A DNA stretch of 64,000 nucleotides. Source: Pseudomonadota bacterium. GTDB taxonomy: Bacteria; Bdellovibrionota; Bdellovibrionia; Bdellovibrionales; Bdellovibrionaceae. The notes beneath the pieces are model-generated. The model had not been told where the DNA came from. It made no database searches and was given only the letters and a program-made list of their open reading frames with translations. The number at the start of each line of letters is the position of its first letter. The stretch's first letter is position 1. Shown here in pieces: positions 38,782 through 49,716 of the stretch. The stretch spans positions 96,001-160,000 of the forward strand of contig JBEGVH010000040.1 in NCBI GenBank assembly GCA_041178425.1, written 5' to 3'. The position numbers and the translations under genes are program-made.

Positions 38782-39603
38782 CTAAGCGCCTTTCATTTGT
38801 ATTATTTGTTGGATCAAAATAAAGCTTCCCATCAAGAGAACAAAATAACCAAAAGCCTTTTTAAGAAATTTTTCATCGGTTTTGGACGCCATTCGGGTTC
38901 CCAATTGTATGCCTATGGTGGCAATCAATGCCAACGTCAAAAGGAGTCTCCAATCGGGCGTTAGGCCCGTCGCAAGATTATTGGCAAACCCAAAGAGTGA
39001 GTTGATCGTAATGATGACGAGTGAGGTACCAACCGCCAATCTCATTGAAAGTCCCCGAAAAAATATGAGGGCAGGGATGATGAGAAAACCGCCACCAGCT
39101 CCGACGAGTCCAGTGACTCCACCGACGAAGATACCCTGACCAATAATAGGTAGCTTTTTCTTTGTGGCGGGTAGGTCTTGGCCCTGGGTCTTGGTTGGCT
39201 GGGGCGTAGCTTTTGCTCTGATCATCGAAATTGAGGCCAGCAGCATTAATACGGCGAATATCACCATTAGAAGTGCATCCTTGGTGAGTTGCATGGGGCC
39301 AAAGCTAAAGAGCACCGTGGGGATAGAGGGCACGATGTAGGTGCGCATGAGAAAAACCCCTGTTAGACTTGGGATCCCAAAAAGGGCCACCGTTTTAAAG
39401 TCAACGGTTCGGGAGCGCATGTACGAATAACTTCCAAGAAGGGTTGTTGCTCCAACAACAAAGAGAGAATAAACGGTGGCTGTAGCCGGTGGAACTTTGA
39501 ATAAGTACACCAGAATCGGTACAGTCAGGATGGAACCACCACCACCAAGAAGTCCGAGAGTGACTCCCATAAAAACACTGGCTAGGTATCCTAAAAAAAG
39601 CAT
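38782..39603 (-). CDS. TauE/SafE (TSUP) family exporter
   Basis: GLLGGGGSILTVP and GLVGAGGGFLIIP repeats; AVGTSL. Confidence 0.92.
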   Translation of the reverse strand: MLFLGYLASVFMGVTLGLLGGGGSILTVPILVYLFKVPPATATVYSLFVVGATTLLGSYSYMRSRTVDFKTVALFGIPSLTGVFLMRTYIVPSIPTVLFSFGPMQLTKDALLMVIFAVLMLLASISMIRAKATPQPTKTQGQDLPATKKKLPIIGQGIFVGGVTGLVGAGGGFLIIPALIFFRGLSMRLAVGTSLVIITINSLFGFANNLATGLTPDWRLLLTLALIATIGIQLGTRMASKTDEKFLKKAFGYFVLLMGSFILIQQIIQMKGA

Positions 39604-39673: not shown

Positions 39674-39695
39674 AACGATGTTCTAGAACATCGTT
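39674..39695. promoter_or_regulatory. Perfect 22-bp palindrome, candidate operator
   Basis: AACGATGTTCT|AGAACATCGTT in the divergent tauE / beta-barrel intergenic region. Confidence 0.7.
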
Positions 39696-39815: not shown

Positions 39816-40868
39816 TTGATTCGGCATTCCCTTATTTTTTTTCTGGTTTTTGTAGGGATCGAGGCAGTAGCCGTCGAAGAAGATCTCAATCTCGATAAAA
39901 TCACCGAACTATCCGCTCCGGTAGTGATCCCGAAAACTCCCGAATCTAAGTATTCGCTTATGGGGCGAATGGATCTAACATTAGAAAGTAATCCGGTCAC
40001 GGCCGCAGCCAACGGCAACCGATCGGACCTCAAGAATTGGCATGGATTGCGCCTCTTTTTAAAATTAAAAGCTTCGGCCAAGACTCATTTTTTCGGTGAA
40101 GTAGCCAATCAAGATTTTTACTACGTTGATTACAAGACAACTGATCACACCACGGTGAGTTTTGGAAAGATTATTGTTCCTTTTGGAGACACCCGGTATT
40201 TTCACCATTTCTACGGTGGGATCCAAGGAAAAGGAGCCACTGGAATTATGTTTCCAAATGTTTGGGCCGAGTCAGGGGTGAGTGTTCAGACGCAAGCAGG
40301 TCGTGACCTTGTTCTTGATACTTATGTTGTTAATGGTTTTAAGGCTTCTTCAGCAACGACCTTTCCGGATCTCAATCAAGCGGCCAGTGATAATCCCAGT
40401 GGCACCAAACGCCAGGCCCTCGGGGCTCGTCTTCAATGGCAGGGCCAGGAACGACTTACGGTCTTGGCTTCGGGCTACCTCGATGTTTATTGGGATAATC
40501 GGCGGTTAAGCTTGCTGGGTCTTGATGCTTTCTCTGATTATGGGTTTTTTAGTTGGCCCATTCGTTTTGGTTTAGGGGTTGCCGATGCGACCGCCGAAAA
40601 AATACCGCAACAGGGAACTTTGCATCGACGAGGCGATTATATTTTGCTCGCAGGAAACGACTTTGGGCCAGGAGAGTGGAGACTTCGTTACGGAACCTAC
40701 AATCATATTACCAAAACTCAGTCCGATGATGACAGTCATAGTTTTGATATGGCCTACATCTGGAACATCGACGTCATCCGCATGATGATTCAGAGGCAAT
40801 GGAATTTCGAGTCGCAAAATGAAAAAGACGACGATCTCTGGCGTTTGATGACCAGTATCGATTTTTAA
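39816..40868 (+). CDS. Outer membrane beta-barrel (porin-like)
   Basis: TTG start after GGAGG; signal peptide; amphipathic strands; FGKIIVPFG; terminal Phe. Confidence 0.7.
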   Translation: MIRHSLIFFLVFVGIEAVAVEEDLNLDKITELSAPVVIPKTPESKYSLMGRMDLTLESNPVTAAANGNRSDLKNWHGLRLFLKLKASAKTHFFGEVANQDFYYVDYKTTDHTTVSFGKIIVPFGDTRYFHHFYGGIQGKGATGIMFPNVWAESGVSVQTQAGRDLVLDTYVVNGFKASSATTFPDLNQAASDNPSGTKRQALGARLQWQGQERLTVLASGYLDVYWDNRRLSLLGLDAFSDYGFFSWPIRFGLGVADATAEKIPQQGTLHRRGDYILLAGNDFGPGEWRLRYGTYNHITKTQSDDDSHSFDMAYIWNIDVIRMMIQRQWNFESQNEKDDDLWRLMTSIDF

Positions 40869-40891
40869 AATGAGAGAGGAATAAAAGAACG

Positions 40892-41470
40892 ATGACATGG
40901 ACTCAAGTGAGTAGCCTTCGATTGCGAAACGCCCCGAGGGCTTTTAAGGCCTTAGCACTAGGCTTTGTATTTTCTATTTCATTGGCCTACCTCTATGCGC
41001 TTGGAAATATTGTGATGGTCGTTGGTCTCACACCCAAAGACATAGCCGTTCATTATTATGGAGCAACAACGAATATCACAGAATCGCCTGTTGCATCCGG
41101 TGAAGAGACCATCAATCTTGAGGATCTGGGGGAGCCGTCAGAGGCTGCACCGATAGCCCCTGGTCCTCGGCCGTCCTTTAAAAATCTGGTTGGCGAGGGT
41201 CATTTTCATTTGTTTGGAATGAGTAGTTTCTTTTTTGGTTTATGTCTTTTGGCGCTTTTCACTGGTATCAATGAGACCCTCAAGAGTTTTCTTGTTGGAG
41301 GAGCTTTTGTATTTGTTGTTCTAGATAACATTAGTTTTATGGCGACACGGTTTCTGGGGCCGAAGTTTGCGATGATGACGGCAGTATCTGGGGGCATTAT
41401 GGGGCTTTGTTTTGCGGGTCTCTGGTTATCGATTGTTTACGAACTGTTGCAAAAAAAGGAGTTAAAATGA
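40892..41470 (+). CDS. 4-TM inner membrane protein with HxHLFG motif (candidate heme b binding)
   Basis: TM1, acidic/Pro loop, GEGHFHLFGMS at the start of TM2, two more TMs. Confidence 0.65.
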   Translation: MTWTQVSSLRLRNAPRAFKALALGFVFSISLAYLYALGNIVMVVGLTPKDIAVHYYGATTNITESPVASGEETINLEDLGEPSEAAPIAPGPRPSFKNLVGEGHFHLFGMSSFFFGLCLLALFTGINETLKSFLVGGAFVFVVLDNISFMATRFLGPKFAMMTAVSGGIMGLCFAGLWLSIVYELLQKKELK

Positions 41471-41988
41471 AATGGCTTATTCTTTTGATGGTTTTTCTCA
41501 GTGGAATCGCTCAAGCTGAGGAATTGATCTCAATGAAAGATTATCTCAAAAAAGAACTTTCAGGTTATAGTAAACTGACCAAAGAATCTTTTGCGTTGAG
41601 CGTTGAACAAAAAGCCGAATTCGGAAAAGTAGCACCGAACTCTGATGAGGAGTCGTATACCTTCTTTTTTGGGAAGACCGCCGAAGGGCAGGTAGAGAAA
41701 GCCTGCACCATTGTTGCTCAAAAGGGAAAAGAAGGCCCTATATCGCTTGGGGTTTGTTTTGATCCAAAAGGACTTCTTCAATCGGTGACCGTTCTTTCGC
41801 ATGAAGAGGAACGAGGTCGTCGAATCACCGAAGAAAGTTTTTTAAAACAATTCAAGGGAAAAAAGGCAACTGACGCTTTCGTTCTTGGTGCTGATGTTGA
41901 TGGAATCAGTGGTGCCACTTACTCATCGAAAGCTATTTCGGAAGCTCTTCGTAAATCGGCCTTTGCATTCAAAACATTTGTGAAATGA
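41467..41988 (+). CDS. Periplasmic FMN-binding protein (ApbE substrate)
   Basis: ATG 41467 (ATGA overlap, SD AAGGAG); signal peptide; GKEGPI; flavinylation motif VDGISGATYSS. Confidence 0.88.
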   Translation: MKWLILLMVFLSGIAQAEELISMKDYLKKELSGYSKLTKESFALSVEQKAEFGKVAPNSDEESYTFFFGKTAEGQVEKACTIVAQKGKEGPISLGVCFDPKGLLQSVTVLSHEEERGRRITEESFLKQFKGKKATDAFVLGADVDGISGATYSSKAISEALRKSAFAFKTFVK

Positions 41989-42512
41989 GAGATTCAATGA
42001 ATAACGATCGGTTAGGATCGACTTTAGTTCTTTTTGTAGGACTCACTTTGATGGGAGGTTGTGGAACCAAGGCTCCTTTTCAAAGGGGTAAAGTGGTCAT
42101 CGAAGAGTCAGGTCAAAAAAATGAAAAGCCAAATACCGTCCCGACTGCGACCCCGACGCCTCTTCCTACGGGCGAGCCGAAAGCCTCTGAAACTCCGGTA
42201 CCAACGGTACAACCCTCACCGGAGCCCCTTCCTGCGGTGACTCTCAATAGAGCCTATTTTAACAGTGAAATATTACCGTTGTTGGCTGCAAAGAAAATTA
42301 ATGGGACGACGAAAGGATGTTCGATGTGTCACGGCAATCCTGCAAGAACCTTCGAAGACGCACAAACCCTCGTAGTGCCCGGGCAACCTGAGAAAAGTCG
42401 TCTCTACATGAAGGCTACCGGTGCTGCGGGGTCCGGACATATGCAGATCTGGGCTTCGGATTCCCCGGAGGCGATGAAACTCCTGTTTTGGATCAGCGGT
42501 AAGGCTCAGTAG
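41985..42512 (+). CDS. Monoheme c-type cytochrome lipoprotein (Planctomycete cytochrome c-like)
   Basis: Lipobox MGGC; Pro/Thr linker; F..EILPLL...CSMCH...VVPGQPEKSRL...HM. Confidence 0.8.
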   Translation: MRDSMNNDRLGSTLVLFVGLTLMGGCGTKAPFQRGKVVIEESGQKNEKPNTVPTATPTPLPTGEPKASETPVPTVQPSPEPLPAVTLNRAYFNSEILPLLAAKKINGTTKGCSMCHGNPARTFEDAQTLVVPGQPEKSRLYMKATGAAGSGHMQIWASDSPEAMKLLFWISGKAQ

Positions 42513-42517
42513 GTCGC

Positions 42518-43525
42518 TTGATATTTATGAGAAAAAAACAACAATCGTTAGTGATTGGATTTTTAGTTTTTATTTTTACGTCGGCCTGTCAGCACAAGCC
42601 GACGTTTTTTTTATGGAATCAAAAAGTAAAGAGCTGTGTCTCTGAACACCGAATTCCTAGCATGGGTACATTTTTTGAAATGCAACTGGTGCATGCGTGT
42701 GACTTTAACCCCGAAAAGGTTGTTGTATCTGCCAAAGAAGAGCTCGATGCCATCGAGTCTGAGTTGAGTCTCTACCAAACGTCGAGTCAGCTGTCCCGGC
42801 TCAATCGTGATGGATTTCTTTGTCCCGCTTCGCCCCATCTGTTAAGAATGACCGAAGTGTCTATCGACTTTTACGAGAGAACGGCCGGAAGGTTCGATGT
42901 TTCTATTTTACCAGTGTTAAAGGCAATTGAAAAAAGCTTCGAAAAAACAGGCAGGTCTCCGAAAGACCTTTCAAAGTTCCGCGCTCTCGTTAATGGTGCG
43001 GGTGTATCCCTTACTAACGGGTGTCTGCGTTTCAAAAGCCCAGGAATGGCTCTTACCTTTGATGGTGTAGCAAAAGGGTATGCCGTCGACAGAGTAGCAG
43101 AAGCATTAACGAATAATATCGATGGTTATCTTCTTAACTTCTCAGGAAATATGCGTTGGTATGGTGAAAAACCTGAGGGGCCATGGAAAATTGCTGTATG
43201 GAATCCCGTGGCTCGCTCTTTGATTTCGCTAGCACCGACAACGAGCGGGGCGATTGCATCTTCTGGTTCAGAACATGTTCACTATGATTCGAATTCTATG
43301 TGGCATCATTTGATTGATCCGAAAACTCTTCGCCCTTCGAATCGATACCAATCGGTGACCGTCGTTGGAAGCCGTGCCATGGAGTGCGATATTCTTTCGA
43401 CGACTTTTTTTGTGCTCGAGTTAACGGAGGCGAGACGATTGCAAAAAAAACAGTTTCCCCAGGTCTCTCTTTACTTGATCAATAAAAAAGGGGAGCTCCA
43501 GTGGCTCCCCTCATTGAAAAACTAG
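42518..43525 (+). CDS. apbE: FAD:protein FMN transferase ApbE
   Basis: MGT, SQLSRLN, FDVSI, GVAKGYAVD, ASSG, HHLIDP; lipobox TSAC. Confidence 0.92.
   Translation: MIFMRKKQQSLVIGFLVFIFTSACQHKPTFFLWNQKVKSCVSEHRIPSMGTFFEMQLVHACDFNPEKVVVSAKEELDAIESELSLYQTSSQLSRLNRDGFLCPASPHLLRMTEVSIDFYERTAGRFDVSILPVLKAIEKSFEKTGRSPKDLSKFRALVNGAGVSLTNGCLRFKSPGMALTFDGVAKGYAVDRVAEALTNNIDGYLLNFSGNMRWYGEKPEGPWKIAVWNPVARSLISLAPTTSGAIASSGSEHVHYDSNSMWHHLIDPKTLRPSNRYQSVTVVGSRAMECDILSTTFFVLELTEARRLQKKQFPQVSLYLINKKGELQWLPSLKN
43484..43510 (-). terminator. Intrinsic terminator of the diheme cytochrome gene, inside the apbE 3' end
   Basis: Minus strand GGGGAGC-cactgga-GCTCCCC-TTTTTT. Confidence 0.7.
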
Positions 43526-43539
43526 CGTTCTAGTCTCTT

Positions 43540-44337
43540 TTAGAGTGATCTAAAAGAGAAACTTCTATTCGCGCGAGTTAAATTGCCATGACATTGCATG
43601 CACGATTGAGTGATCAGAAGTCCTTTTTCGAAGGCTTCAGGTCGCTCTTGAGAGGCCAATTGAACGGTTTCTTCCGCACGAAGATGAACTTCTCCCACCA
43701 TGATATCAGATCCGTGCATCATTTTTTTCTCTTTTAAATCTGCGGCGATGCGAGCGATCTCCATCGCGCTCATTCGTAGAGTAGCGAAGTTTTGACGGCC
43801 CAATTGCGAAGCCGCAAAAATTCCTGAATAAGCTGACATCATGCCATTCATGCTTTTGCACAAGTAGGGGGTGCGGCCTTCTTTGTTGCAATTTTTTGAA
43901 ATCACATCCCAATCATTTTTAAAAATTTGATCCCATCCGATTCCGCTCGTAGCAGCCGTTTGACTATGGCAGGTCGCACATTTTTTCTGAATAGTATTTG
44001 CAACCGTCAATGTCATAGGATCTTGATTGTTGGCGTATTGGGACAGCGTCTGAGCTTGGCTCATCACTGCCATGATTCCCTCTTGGTGATCAGTTCCGAG
44101 GAGCTTACTTTCAGCTAGATTTTGAGTGATGGCGTTAATTTCGCCTGCGATACTTCCCATATAGGGGTAGTTCACTTGCATTAATTCACGCTGTTCACCC
44201 AAAGCCATCACTTGGCTCCTCAGGTATCTCATGTTGTAGCACAATTCTCCAGTCAAAGGATCGGAGCAGAGTGACGCATTGGCAGTATTAAAAAATAAAA
44301 TCGCAGTAAATAAGCTGAACATAAAAGACTTTTTCAT
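43540..44337 (-). CDS. Secreted diheme c-type cytochrome (two helical-bundle repeats)
   Basis: Signal peptide; CATCH and CMQCH, each at the end of a ~125 aa helical repeat; SD GGAGG. Confidence 0.82.
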   Translation of the reverse strand: MKKSFMFSLFTAILFFNTANASLCSDPLTGELCYNMRYLRSQVMALGEQRELMQVNYPYMGSIAGEINAITQNLAESKLLGTDHQEGIMAVMSQAQTLSQYANNQDPMTLTVANTIQKKCATCHSQTAATSGIGWDQIFKNDWDVISKNCNKEGRTPYLCKSMNGMMSAYSGIFAASQLGRQNFATLRMSAMEIARIAADLKEKKMMHGSDIMVGEVHLRAEETVQLASQERPEAFEKGLLITQSCMQCHGNLTRANRSFSFRSL

Positions 44338-44515: not shown

Positions 44516-47500
44516 TTAATTGGCTGGAACATCGGCGCGAGTCACCGTTTGAGGGGCCGGAGGGGGGCAAGCTTCGGAGACCATTTTCGCTATGCCTGTT
44601 GTTTTCCAATAGTCAGCCTTGAGTCTTCTCATGGTCTCAGTGGCTCCTTCACATTTTTTTTGTTGAAGAAAATCAACCGTTGCTAAAAACGGCTGCTCTT
44701 CAATTTGATTCCAGAAGTCTCCCATTTGTTTAAGATCATTCAATAGGCTGGCATCGGGCTTTTGCGAAAAGCGCGTTCTTAAGTCCTCATAACTAAGAAG
44801 TGGCTCTTGCGCTCTCTGCTGAGCCAGTTTGAGGTACCAAACGGATTGTTCGAGGGAATTTGTTTGCCAAGCAGCGACCGAAAGGTAGTACGGCCCCCAG
44901 GGTGCATCAGGAAACAAATCAGAAAGCCTTAGGGCGGCCACCTCCAGTTCTTTGTAAAGCCCCTTTGAAAGACAGGCATTGGCCTCGCGACCGAGGGCTG
45001 ATAGCGAATTTAACCGACTGATGTTTGAGAGGACACAACTCTTTTTGCCGACAGTGAGATCGAGGAGGGGACGGTAGGCAATGGCTTCTTCCCAGGATGG
45101 AACGTAGATTCTCAGCTCGCGGCCATTGAGATCGGAGCGAGACCCTTGAAGGTTGTTTTGTGAGACCAGGGTAGTTTTTGTTATCTGTTCAAGGTCTGCG
45201 AGCGCTTTCTCGATGTCTCGCGGACGGTTTTGTAAGGTTGGTAGAATTTGTGAAATTTCCTCCTTCAGTGCCATGAGGTCTTCGTTCTTAGTATCAAAGG
45301 AGTCTGCAGACGTTTGCAGTGCTTGAGTATAATCGGCGTACAGGTTTTTAAGATCGAGAAGAGCTTTTTTACGGATGTCGAGGTCGTCTGACTTGCCACC
45401 GAGTGTTTCCAGGAGCTGCGCGGCCTTGGCAAATTTTTCTGCTTTAAACGACATGACCATAGCCATACGACCGGAAGAGGCCTTCAGCCCTTGCTTGAAG
45501 TATTCACTCACAAGTACTTTGGACTGAAGATACCGAGCTTGTCGGCGGATATCAGAAGGAGTCGTATCTTTGTTGAGGTTCAGAGCGATTTGGTAGCAAT
45601 CAGACAACTTATTTTTTGAACAAAGCTCTTCTCCTCTTTTGAGTTCCGCTTTGCTAAAGTAGGGTTCTACCCCTTTTTCGATCAGGGTGTTCTCGAGCTT
45701 TTTTGCTTTTTCAGGAGAATACTGACCAAAGAATTTCAAGCGCTTTGTTAGGAGCACTTGTTTTTCGCTGGCGCTCATTTGTTGCTCAAGGGCCTGCCAT
45801 GCCTGGTCAGTTGATTCGACATCGCCAGACCAAGAGGAAAACTCTGCTAATAGCTCATTTAACTCGCGTTTTTTTTCGGGGGTTTGAACCAAAGATAAAG
45901 CGAGCGACATAGACACTCTTGCTCGATTCAGATCGCCGAGTTTTAAAAATAATTCATTGGCATGAAGACTGAATTTCTCTGCGTCTGTCGACTTCTTTAT
46001 TTGCGCCATTTCTTTGGCTAACACTTCGGATTGCTCAGCGGCACGACGAAACTGCTTTCTTTTTTCTAAAAGCTCTATAGCCAAGTGAAGGGCATCAAGA
46101 GCCTTGATTTCTGGGCGATGCTCTTTATAGAAAAGCTCCGATAAGGTAGCCGCCTCACCGAATTTATTTTTTTCGACCAACTGTTGAATAATCGATTGTT
46201 GTGCTTCTTGATAAATTCCTTTGATTTTTAAGGCTCTTTCGCCGGTTGATGACTTGAGAATAATTAGACTCGCGGATGCGAGCGATGGATAGTCTTTTTT
46301 CGCTCGGTGAATTTCGAGAATTAAATCGTCTCTTTTGTTGATGAGAACTGAGGTTTTTGGAATCATTTTCGATAATGTGATCAGAGACTGGGAGAAATCT
46401 CTCGCCTCATAGAAGAGATAGGCTTTTTTGAACATGACATCTTGGGTGAATTCTCCTGTTGGCATTCGCATCAAGTATTCATTGAGCGCCAAAGACAGTT
46501 TTTCACGAAGAACCTGATTCTTATTGTCTGTCGCTAGCTGACGGTCAAGACTGACAATATGCCCATAGAGGGCCGTATGAAGAATCGGGTTTTCGGCCTT
46601 CTCATTTTTTGAAAGCTCTTCGTATTGAAGGCCTGCGGCTTTAAATTCGCCTTGAGAAAAGAGAAATTCAGCATAAGCCAGGTGAAGGGGAATATTGGGT
46701 TCCTTTTGTTTCTCAAAATGGAGGTATTCACCAAAAATAAAATGAAGCTGTGAAATCATGTCTTTGCTTCGATTGAGTTTATTCCATGCCTGCCACCATT
46801 GGCTTGTGTACTCAGTGAGAAAATCTGGGTAGCTGGTTTTACAGAAGGCTTCTGAGTCCTTGCTTTTCGACTGCCATCGAGGGTCGTTACAGAGCTTTGA
46901 TGCGTCTTGAATAATACTGACAACGGTGGAGGTGTGCTGTTTGTCGTTGTGGTAGTGGGCTCTTTTAATCAATATGGGCCCGGCGCTTTCATCTTGAGGA
47001 TTGTCTTTGAGGAATTGAGCAAGAACAGAATCCATTTCGAGAAGTTTGCCGTGGCGTTCATAAATTGCAGACAAGTCAAGGACGGTTGGTCCAACTTCAT
47101 TTGGAAGAAGCTTCTTGTTAAAGTATGTGATCGCATTTTCGACTGTTCCAACTTCGCTGTAAAAGAGGGCGAGATCGCGCCGCGCCTCAGTACGAACGTG
47201 CGAGATGGTGGCAATTTTCTGAGATTGAAGAAGAAGTTTTTCTAATTTTTTTAAGCCATCGCTCGTCTCTTTTTGATTGTAGGAGCACCAAGCACTTTTG
47301 TAGAGCGCAAGGGGGGCAATGGGTGTGCGAGGCCATTTTTGTACGAGATCGAAATGGGTCATCGCTGTCGCATAATTTTGTTTCTGAAAATAGAGTTCTC
47401 CCAGTGCCATGTTCGTCTCTGGCAGCAGAACTGATTTTGGAAACTTCTCAGGAATCATCAGGAATTTTTGTAAAGCAAGGTCTCGTTCTCCTCTCTGATC

Positions 47501-47968
47501 ATGGGCAAACGCCCGATTGAAAAGCACTTCATCCATGGCTGCAAATTGGGGGTGCTGAGCTTCAATGATTTGATAGTTTTCTATCGCCTTACCAAGATAG
47601 TTTTTGGCACTGACCGAGGTTAAGTCACTCTGGAAGAGATCACGGAGTTTTTTTTCACTTCTGTAGAGGTCGATGAATCGCCCTGTTTTGGCTCGTCGGG
47701 TGTAGAGTTCGGCAAGGCGAAAAAGCAGGTCAGGTTGCTGGGAGCTCCCTTTGTATTTTTTTAGAAGGGCCTCTAATTGTTTGATGGCCATGTCTTCGCT
47801 TCGCGAGATTAGTGCTTCGGCTTCGGCCGCCGTTTTGACATTAGCCGCTTCAGTTTGTTTGTTTAGTTTGATCTCAGGAAGCACTCCCTTGGGGGTGTGT
47901 TCGGCGGCAAAAAGAGAGGTCGAGACTGATAATGAAAGTAACGACAACTGAAAGCGTTTCATAACCAC
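44516..47968 (-). CDS. Large periplasmic TPR protein, GltD/AgmU-like
   Basis: Signal peptide; DLLFRLAELY; many TPR repeats; immediately downstream of motA/exbD/exbD. Confidence 0.72.
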   Translation of the reverse strand: MVMKRFQLSLLSLSVSTSLFAAEHTPKGVLPEIKLNKQTEAANVKTAAEAEALISRSEDMAIKQLEALLKKYKGSSQQPDLLFRLAELYTRRAKTGRFIDLYRSEKKLRDLFQSDLTSVSAKNYLGKAIENYQIIEAQHPQFAAMDEVLFNRAFAHDQRGERDLALQKFLMIPEKFPKSVLLPETNMALGELYFQKQNYATAMTHFDLVQKWPRTPIAPLALYKSAWCSYNQKETSDGLKKLEKLLLQSQKIATISHVRTEARRDLALFYSEVGTVENAITYFNKKLLPNEVGPTVLDLSAIYERHGKLLEMDSVLAQFLKDNPQDESAGPILIKRAHYHNDKQHTSTVVSIIQDASKLCNDPRWQSKSKDSEAFCKTSYPDFLTEYTSQWWQAWNKLNRSKDMISQLHFIFGEYLHFEKQKEPNIPLHLAYAEFLFSQGEFKAAGLQYEELSKNEKAENPILHTALYGHIVSLDRQLATDNKNQVLREKLSLALNEYLMRMPTGEFTQDVMFKKAYLFYEARDFSQSLITLSKMIPKTSVLINKRDDLILEIHRAKKDYPSLASASLIILKSSTGERALKIKGIYQEAQQSIIQQLVEKNKFGEAATLSELFYKEHRPEIKALDALHLAIELLEKRKQFRRAAEQSEVLAKEMAQIKKSTDAEKFSLHANELFLKLGDLNRARVSMSLALSLVQTPEKKRELNELLAEFSSWSGDVESTDQAWQALEQQMSASEKQVLLTKRLKFFGQYSPEKAKKLENTLIEKGVEPYFSKAELKRGEELCSKNKLSDCYQIALNLNKDTTPSDIRRQARYLQSKVLVSEYFKQGLKASSGRMAMVMSFKAEKFAKAAQLLETLGGKSDDLDIRKKALLDLKNLYADYTQALQTSADSFDTKNEDLMALKEEISQILPTLQNRPRDIEKALADLEQITKTTLVSQNNLQGSRSDLNGRELRIYVPSWEEAIAYRPLLDLTVGKKSCVLSNISRLNSLSALGREANACLSKGLYKELEVAALRLSDLFPDAPWGPYYLSVAAWQTNSLEQSVWYLKLAQQRAQEPLLSYEDLRTRFSQKPDASLLNDLKQMGDFWNQIEEQPFLATVDFLQQKKCEGATETMRRLKADYWKTTGIAKMVSEACPPPAPQTVTRADVPAN

Positions 47969-47970
47969 CT

Positions 47971-48465
47971 CTAATTTCCTGAAATAGTTGCAAGGCGAAC
48001 TTTTAAAAAACCAGCCATGGAGGCCGTCGATAAAATTTGTCGGACATTGGGGTATGGCGCCTCTCGATCAACTTGGAGAATGATTTCCTCTTTATCTTTC
48101 TTAGACTTTTTTATTTCTTGAAGGGCCGCAAGAAGTGGCTTGATGATCTCACCTTGGTCGATGTCTTTTGAGGCGACCATAAAATTGTTAACTTTTAAGA
48201 GCTCCTTTTCATTAAGGCTCAAGAGATCCTTTGAAAGGCTTACCATGGGGGCTTCTTGAGGTTGTTGGTCCGAAACAGAAGTGGGCATTCGAACTCCCAT
48301 TTGAGGTTTTACATCGTAGGAGTTCGTCGAATAGGTTTGTAAGAGAAACACCAACATGATGGTAAACATGTCGGTCATAGAGTTTATATTTAACGAGAAT
48401 GTTGTATTGGGTTTCTTTTTAAATCGGATTCTTCTATCCACTTTATCCCTCCAGCGTGTTGGCAA
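47971..48465 (-). CDS. ExbD/TolR-family subunit (AglS-like)
   Basis: LNINSMTDMFTIMLVFLL TM with Asp; ILQVDREAPY...AGF. Confidence 0.85.
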   Translation of the reverse strand: MPTRWRDKVDRRIRFKKKPNTTFSLNINSMTDMFTIMLVFLLQTYSTNSYDVKPQMGVRMPTSVSDQQPQEAPMVSLSKDLLSLNEKELLKVNNFMVASKDIDQGEIIKPLLAALQEIKKSKKDKEEIILQVDREAPYPNVRQILSTASMAGFLKVRLATISGN

Positions 48466-48988
48466 AGACTACATCAGGATACATATACTCAGTTTCTTCC
48501 AACGTGCCGGATTGAGGATTTGTAAACTTAAATTTTTCGTTCTTGGTTGGGCTCTTTCGAGCGGCATCAATTATTTTAACAATTGTATCGTAGGGAACAT
48601 TCCCCTGAGGCAATAGATCGAGTCGAAAGAGCTGAGGAGCTTGTCTCTTGAATCTCGCCAGTGACTCTTGAACTGTTTTGAATTCGTCCTCCTTTTGGGG
48701 ATACGCCATTTTTAATTCACTGAGTGTTTTTCCCCCCGAAGACAACTTCATTTGAATACCCCTCGAAGGGTGTATTTGAAGCTCCAATTGTGGCATTTCA
48801 TTGGGTTTAGCCTCGCTGACAGCAGCCGCCACCGGGGCGGGGAGTTCGCTTTGAATGACAACGATAGGAACAAAAGCGGATGAAACAATTAACACAGGAA
48901 CCAGCTTGACCATCACCGCCAAGAGCGGCGCGAGGTCTAGCTCGAATTCATGCGATAGCCCATCGACGGGTAGTGATCTGCGTCTCAT
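48443..48988 (-). CDS. ExbD/TolR-family subunit (AglQ-like), TM Asp absent
   Basis: ELDLAPLLAVMVKLVPVL; P..NVPYDTIVKIIDAAR. Confidence 0.78.
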   Translation of the reverse strand: MRRRSLPVDGLSHEFELDLAPLLAVMVKLVPVLIVSSAFVPIVVIQSELPAPVAAAVSEAKPNEMPQLELQIHPSRGIQMKLSSGGKTLSELKMAYPQKEDEFKTVQESLARFKRQAPQLFRLDLLPQGNVPYDTIVKIIDAARKSPTKNEKFKFTNPQSGTLEETEYMYPDVVFANTLEG

Positions 48989-49002
48989 GATAACCCCCTT
49001 TG

Positions 49003-49716
49003 TTACGAGGCTCGGTAGGCGCCGGCGCCATTTAATTTTGGTGCTTCTGGACCAAGGTCATCTGTGCCCGCGGAGTTAACCGAGAGGAGAGGCCCTGCGC
49101 CCGTCAAGGTTTCTTCTAGTTTTTGCACTTGCTCATAAAGTTCCTCTCCTAGCTGGTTTTGTCGAGACACTAAAAATGAGTACACGATCATCACCGGTAT
49201 TGCGACAGCGAGACCAAGAGCGGTGGTGTACATCGAAACTGAAATACCATGGGCGAGCAAAGCCTGCTTTTGAGAGGGATCCGCTGTTGCCACCGCTTGG
49301 AAAGAAAGAATTAGACCATGAATGGTTCCGAGTAACCCAAGAAGTGTTGCGACGTTGGCTAACATCGACAGGTAGTGAATTCGCTTACTAAACTGTGGCA
49401 TATTTTCTGAAAGCGCAATATCAGTGGCTTGGTGAATCGCTTCTTCTTCACGATCAGCCTTGAGGAGAATCGTTTTAAAGGCCTTGGCGAGAGGTTTTTT
49501 TGCGAGACCCTCGCAAAGAAGAAGAGCCTCTTCGTATCTCTGTTGTCCAACGAAGTGTTGGATCCGTTTATTGAACTGATCGGTGTTCAAATGAAAATCA
49601 AAGAAAAGCGTCTTAATGCGCTCAGCAATGATGGCGATTGCAAAGAGGCCGGTGGCTATGATAGTCCAGCCAACGACTCCTGCATCGACGATGAAATTAA
49701 CGATTTGTTGTAACAT
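49003..49716 (-). CDS. MotA/TolQ/ExbB proton channel (AglR-like)
   Basis: ANVATLLGLLGTIHGLI, GISVSMYTTALGL.VAIP. Confidence 0.92.
   Translation of the reverse strand: MLQQIVNFIVDAGVVGWTIIATGLFAIAIIAERIKTLFFDFHLNTDQFNKRIQHFVGQQRYEEALLLCEGLAKKPLAKAFKTILLKADREEEAIHQATDIALSENMPQFSKRIHYLSMLANVATLLGLLGTIHGLILSFQAVATADPSQKQALLAHGISVSMYTTALGLAVAIPVMIVYSFLVSRQNQLGEELYEQVQKLEETLTGAGPLLSVNSAGTDDLGPEAPKLNGAGAYRAS

Follow-up and report, generated by a model that had tools for sequence, protein, structure and literature searches.

Organisation and conservation of the cassette

The window analysed here is a stretch of 64,000 nt from a member of Bdellovibrionaceae (assembly GCA_041178425.1, contig JBEGVH010000040.1, positions 96,001 to 160,000), the genome of which is referred to as G000. 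It contains five genes within 3.7 kb (Table 1), encoding a porin (A), a four-helix membrane protein (B), a flavin mononucleotide (FMN)-binding protein of the FMN_bind family (C), a cytochrome lipoprotein (D) and ApbE (E), and a gene encoding a dihaem cytochrome (F) that converges on E; the two are 14 nt apart, and both strands have terminator-like hairpins there. Our analysis indicates that genes A to E form a real, conserved and apparently undescribed cassette for electron transfer by ApbE-dependent flavinylation with a porin-cytochrome end.

The original prediction for this locus, made from the DNA sequence, described five coupled genes with two ATGA overlaps, and the open reading frames (ORFs) and their spacing were found as first described: a 23-nt gap between A and B, ATGA overlaps at the B-C and C-D junctions and a gap of 5-14 nt between D and E. 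The signatures that it listed, namely HFHLFG in B, SGAT in C, lipobox Cys26, a Pro/Thr linker and one CxxCH in D, and two CxxCH in F, are all present in the sequence.

Table 1 Features of the locus (positions in the window)
Feature	Position	Strand	Characteristics
A, outer-membrane porin	39816..40868	+	signal peptide, predicted 16-strand beta-barrel, C-terminal Phe, conserved long loop 3 (His130, GG)
B, four-helix inner-membrane protein, PF27139 (Aq_1264_TM)	40892..41470	+	His104/His106; candidate haem b/quinol module
C, secreted stand-alone FMN_bind (RnfG-like) protein	41467..41988	+	predicted flavinylation at Thr151 (codon 41917-41919) in SGAT
D, monohaem c lipoprotein, FoxE-like domain	41985..42512	+	lipobox Cys26, Pro/Thr linker, CxxCH 42318-42332, His152
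E, ApbE flavin adenine dinucleotide (FAD):protein FMN transferase, lipoprotein	42518/42527..43525	+	PF02424
F, secreted dihaem c cytochrome, without named family	43540..44337	-	two CxxCH; recurrent but optional partner
Perfect 22-bp palindrome	39674..39695	.	lies between the divergent genes tauE and A; may be an operator or form a hairpin; no conservation at other loci
TauE/SafE sulfite-exporter gene, divergent from A	38782-39603		

A scan of GTDB contigs with B as the query returned 14 loci, 12 of which have the full A-B-C-D-E order, while the other two (L002 and L006) are cut at contig ends; L004, L007 and L009 have a frameshift or gap that breaks A. Six of 11 metagenome loci are complete, including three that repeat GTDB loci (L036, L037 and L042) and one with an EB_dh haem-b gene inserted between A and B (L046), and four are short of genes near contig ends. 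The order is fixed at 30-60% identity and is conserved in other genomes against flanks that are unrelated from locus to locus, so the clustering is not due to chance. The neighbourhood search proposed with the original prediction has thus returned the same genes in the same order elsewhere.

Relatives of the window genes come from Bdellovibrionota, the closest from Pseudobdellovibrionaceae. Close matches of B were present in 5 of 301 genomes of the phylum, plus six with distant ones, and a deeper B profile matched 17 of 401 genomes and none of 54 other genomes of its own family; these sets are samples, and absence means that none was found in the genomes searched. The cassette is a conserved accessory cassette of Bdellovibrionota, rare and patchy in its distribution.

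C and E are a predicted flavinylation pair

C matches PF04205 with 47.5 bits (cut-off 22) and E matches PF02424 with 195.8 bits (cut-off 25.6), in agreement with their initial assignment as an FMN-binding protein and ApbE. C is also similar to RnfG structures (E-value 1.9e-9). Gly149-Ala150 of C is invariant (16 of 16), within [S/T]GA[S/T] in 15 and within AGAT in one, and Cys80 and Cys97 are invariant. The genome, which is 100% complete, contains one FMN_bind match and one ApbE match, both in the cassette, which leaves C as the sole evident substrate of E, and it is predicted from these sequence data that E flavinylates C. The initial observation that the window lacks nqr, rnf and nos genes extends to the genome, which gave no match to NqrB/RnfD (PF03116).

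B is a candidate haem-containing membrane module

B and 107 relatives all carry the precomputed label PF27139 (108/108; Atlas 0.96), and no family match was obtained for B in the Pfam set searched, which was without the PF27139 model. The family comprises 728 clusters at 50% identity (E-value ≤0.001), and the members that were read bear hypothetical names only. His106 is present in 128 of 128 aligned relatives, His104 in 127 and His54 in 54. In the structural model (pLDDT 91.7) B consists of four long helices. The HxH lies close to the beginning of helix 2, on what would be the periplasmic side judging by the charge distribution, and a haem b site is predicted at the periplasmic face of B. Since His104 and His106, two residues apart on one helix, face opposite ways, one monomer cannot hold a haem with both, and the simplest reading is that the haems probably sit between subunits. 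The HFH of B is reminiscent of the HxH in helix X of COX1, which provides a pair of haem ligands, and four-helix haem-copper-oxidase-homology units have reportedly been described by Pei in 2014.

A periplasmic-loop CxxCH domain is found in 57 of the 150 B relatives listed. A profile of the N-terminal half of D matched 42 of these 57 fused relatives vs 1 of the 93 unfused ones (hhalign 96.7%), a match tempered by the fact that its scores come partly from the CxxCH itself. The D domain may be circularly permuted in the fused relatives, a lead for which the C-half profile matched 0 of 57 using hidden Markov models (HMM) and reached 37.6% in hhalign. A plasmid search with a fused relative gave one weak match (22% coverage) among 72,556 records and was uninformative. 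No match of B (E-value ≤1) was obtained to PF12801, PF01794, PF03929/PF16357, PF02683, NqrB/RnfD or PF14358. Because NapH-like and DUF4405-like modules take its place beside porin relatives (see below), the sequence comparisons support B as a membrane redox module filling the slot of the membrane electron carrier.

D and A are probable partners at the outer membrane

An AlphaFold2 model of A (pLDDT 83.6, 330 residues) contains 16 barrel strands, which supplies the strand count for the beta-barrel that had been proposed and gives it a predicted OprP-like fold. OprP was the best fold match in a VIA search (Z 22.2, root-mean-square deviation (rmsd) 4.5, 286 residues aligned), and other 16-strand porins, DcaP and PorB among them, lie near it (Z 19.8-21.1). 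The Atlas neighbours of A are of the Porin_O_P/BBP2/LbtU type; no match to the Pfam families searched was obtained, and a sequence search against PDB gave nothing significant. The long third loop contains a conserved His-x3-Gly-Gly segment that would line the pore. The barrel, as modelled with 16 strands, is too small for an MtrA-type insert.

The CxxCH of D is invariant and a distal second His (His152 in the window) is present in 17 of 17 domains, so the haem of D is predicted to be bis-His ligated. The best solved relative is FoxE (PDB 5MAB, E-value 7.5e-6 over the domain), which aligns a Met-Pro-Pro segment where D has its distal His. In several relatives of D the domain is repeated two or three times. 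D has a weak match to NF047812, below the cut-off, and no match to the Pfam families searched. Matches to SslE, internalin and TonB were limited to the Pro/Thr linker and were rejected. With no Asp at position +2, D is predicted to be anchored in the outer membrane.

In another genome (G104, contig C270, L137:2376-3632), a single ORF encodes a signal peptide, a D domain and an A barrel. The product of the gene that follows it resembles a fumarate-reductase cytochrome b subunit, and the cut fragment gave no Pfam match. A second D-A fusion (P0337) is 50% identical to the first and P0343 is a possible partial third; D and A are separate genes in the window, and the single-gene fusion is found only in P0336 and P0337. 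These natural fusions support D and A as partners, with D likely at the periplasmic mouth of A. In Cyc2, a monohaem cytochrome with the motif AXPXFAR[Q/K][T/Y] before CXXCH is fused N-terminally to an OprO/OprP-like barrel of 16 strands (Keffer 2021, PMC8406198), and this motif is absent from the 17 D domains and the fusions. Because the fusion layout is shared and the Cyc2-defining motif is missing, D with A would work like a cytochrome-porin that, by its sequence, is not Cyc2.

F is a recurrent but optional partner

Besides the window, F adjoins the cassette at L001, L004/L037, L010/L042, L014, L038 and L039, in four arrangements. Its family occurs in 9 of the 301 genomes, seven of which are without the cassette, and two stand-alone paralogues are found in unrelated contexts in G000 (C29:34100-34891 and C6:118515-119267). 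No Pfam name above the cut-off was obtained for the family, and a PDB sequence search returned no solved relative. F is a recurrent but optional partner of the cassette, an extra carrier. The original inclusion of F in the system therefore stands in part: the gene adjoins the cassette at other loci, but it is optional and most genomes with F lack the cassette.

Upstream of the cassette in L004 (3935-6581) and L037, a divergent operon encodes a secreted protein of 428 aa that begins like Cyc2 and has its CxxCH in the N-terminal part, together with a trihaem cytochrome and a small monohaem cytochrome. In G000, five ORFs contain two CxxCH motifs and one contains five, and three matches to haem-copper oxidase subunit I were found.

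Beyond F, an operon in the window (44516-49716) encodes a 1150-aa tetratricopeptide repeat (TPR) protein and the products of two ExbD-like genes and one ExbB/MotA-like gene, an arrangement that resembles gliding-motility motor clusters. The TPR gene also adjoins the cassette at L001. On the other side, tauE is found upstream at none of the 14 GTDB loci, and a sigma-70 scan was at chance level (5 vs 6.4).

The membrane module is exchanged in related regions

A profile of porin A matched 37 of the 301 genomes. Taking the best porin place in each genome and the ApbE places listed, 22 of 32 genomes have the two within 10 kb of each other; five of the 37 porin genomes have no listed ApbE place, and 44 ApbE matches are outside the list. 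Seventeen regions were fetched, mostly for porin-ApbE proximity and with kin among them that are not independent, which lessens the weight of the counts. In eleven, the porin and ApbE are accompanied by an FMN_bind-fold gene and by a polyferredoxin membrane protein of the NapH-like PF12801 type; several of these also have a NAD-binding oxidoreductase. In three others the porin occurs with an FMN_bind-fold gene that encodes a GAT motif and with a small membrane protein rich in His, which in one case is at the DUF4405 cut-off. D-like cytochromes occur in seven of the 17. NapH-like proteins and DUF4405 cytochromes are both published membrane electron modules linked to flavinylation (PMC8238504, PMC11334425).

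Distant relatives of B are found beside metal genes. In L030 (4258-9182), feoB points away from an FMN_bind-fold gene that is accompanied by two small membrane proteins in tandem, a clear homologue of B and a faint one, with ApbE converging. Further distant homologues are located in heavy-metal islands (L026-L029 and L035), at several of which a CsoR-like repressor, P-type ATPase or multicopper oxidase is encoded; the partner found at L026 and L027 combines a CxxCH domain and an FMN_bind fold in one fusion that lacks the flavinylation motif. Some of these islands carry a porin weakly like A.

Proposed pathway and alternative explanations

Combining gene content, domain fusions and module exchange, we consider it on balance probable that the cassette is a reductive relay from quinol through B, C and D to the pore, acting on a small soluble acceptor that is probably a metal. 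B would draw electrons from the quinol pool, and C, once flavinylated by E, would carry them across the periplasm to the haem of D, which, at the periplasmic mouth of A, would pass them on to a small soluble molecule coming in through the pore; a chelate of ferric iron or another metal is the most likely acceptor. F would serve as an optional extra carrier. Outward flow is favoured by the distal His of D and by the example of characterised flavinylated carriers. Points in favour of iron uptake are the likenesses to FoxE and Cyc2, the presence of feoB and heavy-metal genes next to distant relatives, and the LbtU-type Atlas neighbours of A.

A number of results weigh against this pathway. The regions preceding A, scanned at 17 loci, contained no Fur box at any of them (best 10-12 of 19), although the genome has Fur, and no FNR box (best 6-8 of 10). 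No iron-transporter family was found among 51 neighbours scanned at close-type loci, a selection of the ORFs listed. Two loci depart from the gene set: no ApbE is detectable after D in the metagenome locus L043, and in L033 (genome G056) A-B-C-D is present with ApbE on another contig rather than after D. The D-A fusions are rare, with CxxCH in none of a set of 49 barrels, and at the NapH-type loci (L122-L126, L128-L133) the FMN_bind-fold protein has KATG in place of [S/T]GA[S/T] in 10 of 10 listed (KATG may be a non-canonical flavinylation site). For B, no significant solved relative was found by PDB sequence search or Foldseek. Profiles of COX1 built from 29 fetched loci, which are shallow templates, gave probabilities of 0.2-0.9% with shuffled controls reaching 0.8%, and the VIA comparison with COX1 (Z 8.0, rmsd 4.3, 133 residues aligned) was level with generic helical bundles. 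Electron transfer from quinol to FMN is uphill in redox potential, and B is without a cytoplasmic NAD(P)H or Fe-S domain. The relay from quinol to the outer membrane in the original prediction is therefore sustained in part: co-occurrence, the position of B in the electron-module slot and the partnership of D and A speak for it, while the lack of a Fur or FNR box or iron transporter at close loci does not.

The same components could be run inward: the porin-cytochrome would oxidise a small reduced molecule (an Fe(II) complex, a sulfur compound, or a reduced shuttle of humic or prey origin), and the electrons would pass to the quinone pool, as in Cyc2 or FoxE. Transfer from flavin to quinone is downhill, the D-A fusions copy the architecture of Cyc2, D resembles FoxE, the 428-aa protein with N-terminal CxxCH lies with two cytochromes divergently upstream at L004/L037, and the three haem-copper oxidase subunit I matches could act as sinks. 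We regard this direction as unlikely, given that D lacks the Cyc2 motif and has a distal His, which usually lowers the haem potential, where FoxE has Met-Pro-Pro; moreover, most characterised flavinylated carriers deliver outward to reductases (PMC8238504). Somewhat less likely again is a relay that shares the wiring of our favoured outward pathway and differs in purpose, passing electrons to soluble external acceptors for respiration or redox balancing at low oxygen rather than for metal uptake, with F and other cytochromes as extra carriers. It would fit the lack of iron regulator sites and transporters at close loci, the extra c-type cytochromes (F at six other loci, L004, L011), the EB_dh haem-b gene (L046) and the Usp/CBS/PAS-kinase genes (L011, L033), but each carrier has one or two haems, the pore is small, few multihaem proteins are encoded in the genome, and the distant homologues lie by feoB and heavy-metal genes.

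It seems improbable that B is instead a haem enzyme like styrene oxide isomerase (SOI), the cassette importing and transforming an organic or nitrogen-oxide substrate while C and D keep the haem in its proper state. SOI is a trimeric four-helix haem b protein with the haem held at the protomer interface via one His (PMC12502698), and B has weak Atlas links to SOI (template modelling (TM) score 0.63 by target, below the naming bar) and COX1 (TM score 0.54 by query), as well as a Foldseek probability of 0.94, but an E-value of 1.6, to the MAPEG trimer mPGES1. However, none of these fold links is significant, the two near-invariant His of B could fill both axial sites, and NapH-like and DUF4405-like electron carriers take the slot of B elsewhere; SOI and MAPEG proteins are absent from the top 50 VIA rows for B, which is no exclusion. 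The patchy spread of the cassette, with five close matches in 301 genomes and 0 of 54 others of its own family, would also be expected of a selfish or stress island in which the genes merely travel together outside any single pathway. This is hardly credible in view of the order fixed at 30-60% identity, the overlapping stops and starts, the fusions and a GC content of 45.5% vs 44.3% for the genome.

A wider and more speculative extension of the favoured outward relay, which we hold to be possible yet doubtful, is that the cassette represents a minimal wire across the envelope of a new kind, a split, reductive counterpart of Cyc2. A FoxE-like bis-His cytochrome would plug an OprP-like porin and receive electrons through a flavinylated shuttle from a homo-oligomeric three-haem quinol module that descends from one repeat of the haem-copper-oxidase core, on a porin-FMN-ApbE chassis that would accept at least three membrane modules, and so constitute a widespread, unrecognised route of metal redox chemistry at the outer membrane.

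Thousands of genomes contain ApbE flavinylation genes without an assigned membrane partner or endpoint (PMC8238504), and the cassette offers a candidate for each, PF27139 as the membrane module and a porin-cytochrome endpoint whose likeness to Cyc2 is one of architecture only. Confirmation of these roles would link flavinylation to outer-membrane redox chemistry in diderms, give a function to three unannotated families, and imply that cytochrome-porin fusions need not mean iron oxidation.

Comparison with known systems

The published classes of ApbE flavinylation systems comprise NapH-like, MsrQ-like, PepSY-like, DsbD and NQR/RNF-like types (Meheust 2021, PMC8238504), to which the flavinylation cytochrome DUF4405/FezC has been added (Huang 2024, PMC11334425). 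The cassette shares with them ApbE, a secreted FMN_bind substrate with [S/T]GA[S/T] and a membrane module, and also the interchangeability of flavin and cytochrome domains, but its module PF27139 is in none of their classes, and a dedicated porin and a porin-linked cytochrome are added. The view that the combination had not been described is upheld by the main texts of both papers, which are without the module and in which the words porin, barrel, Bdellovibrio and Aquif occur 0 times, while their supplements may hold these clusters; no describing paper was found in a literature search by which subscription journals were mostly not covered.

Like Cyc2, the cassette pairs a monohaem c cytochrome with a 16-strand OprO/OprP-like barrel, and the two are fused in two relatives. 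They are usually two genes here, however, and D is without the motif, has a larger FoxE-like domain on a lipoprotein tether, and is linked to a flavinylated carrier and ApbE. FoxE itself, which serves iron oxidation in Rhodobacter ferrooxidans SW2, is soluble and larger than D, and its haems have His/Met ligation; the D domain matches FoxE over its full length, but D is monohaem or tandem-repeated, lipid-anchored and provided with a distal His. With the four-helix haem-copper-oxidase units, SOI and MAPEG proteins, B shares four transmembrane helices, and neither profile nor fold searches brought out homology. MtrCAB-type conduits likewise join a porin and a cytochrome of the periplasm to a quinol module in the inner membrane. 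The barrel of A, by contrast, is too small in the model for a decahaem insert (MtrB ranked 35th, Z 12.7, rmsd 8.9), and the cassette has no multihaem wire or surface cytochrome, D carrying one CxxCH.

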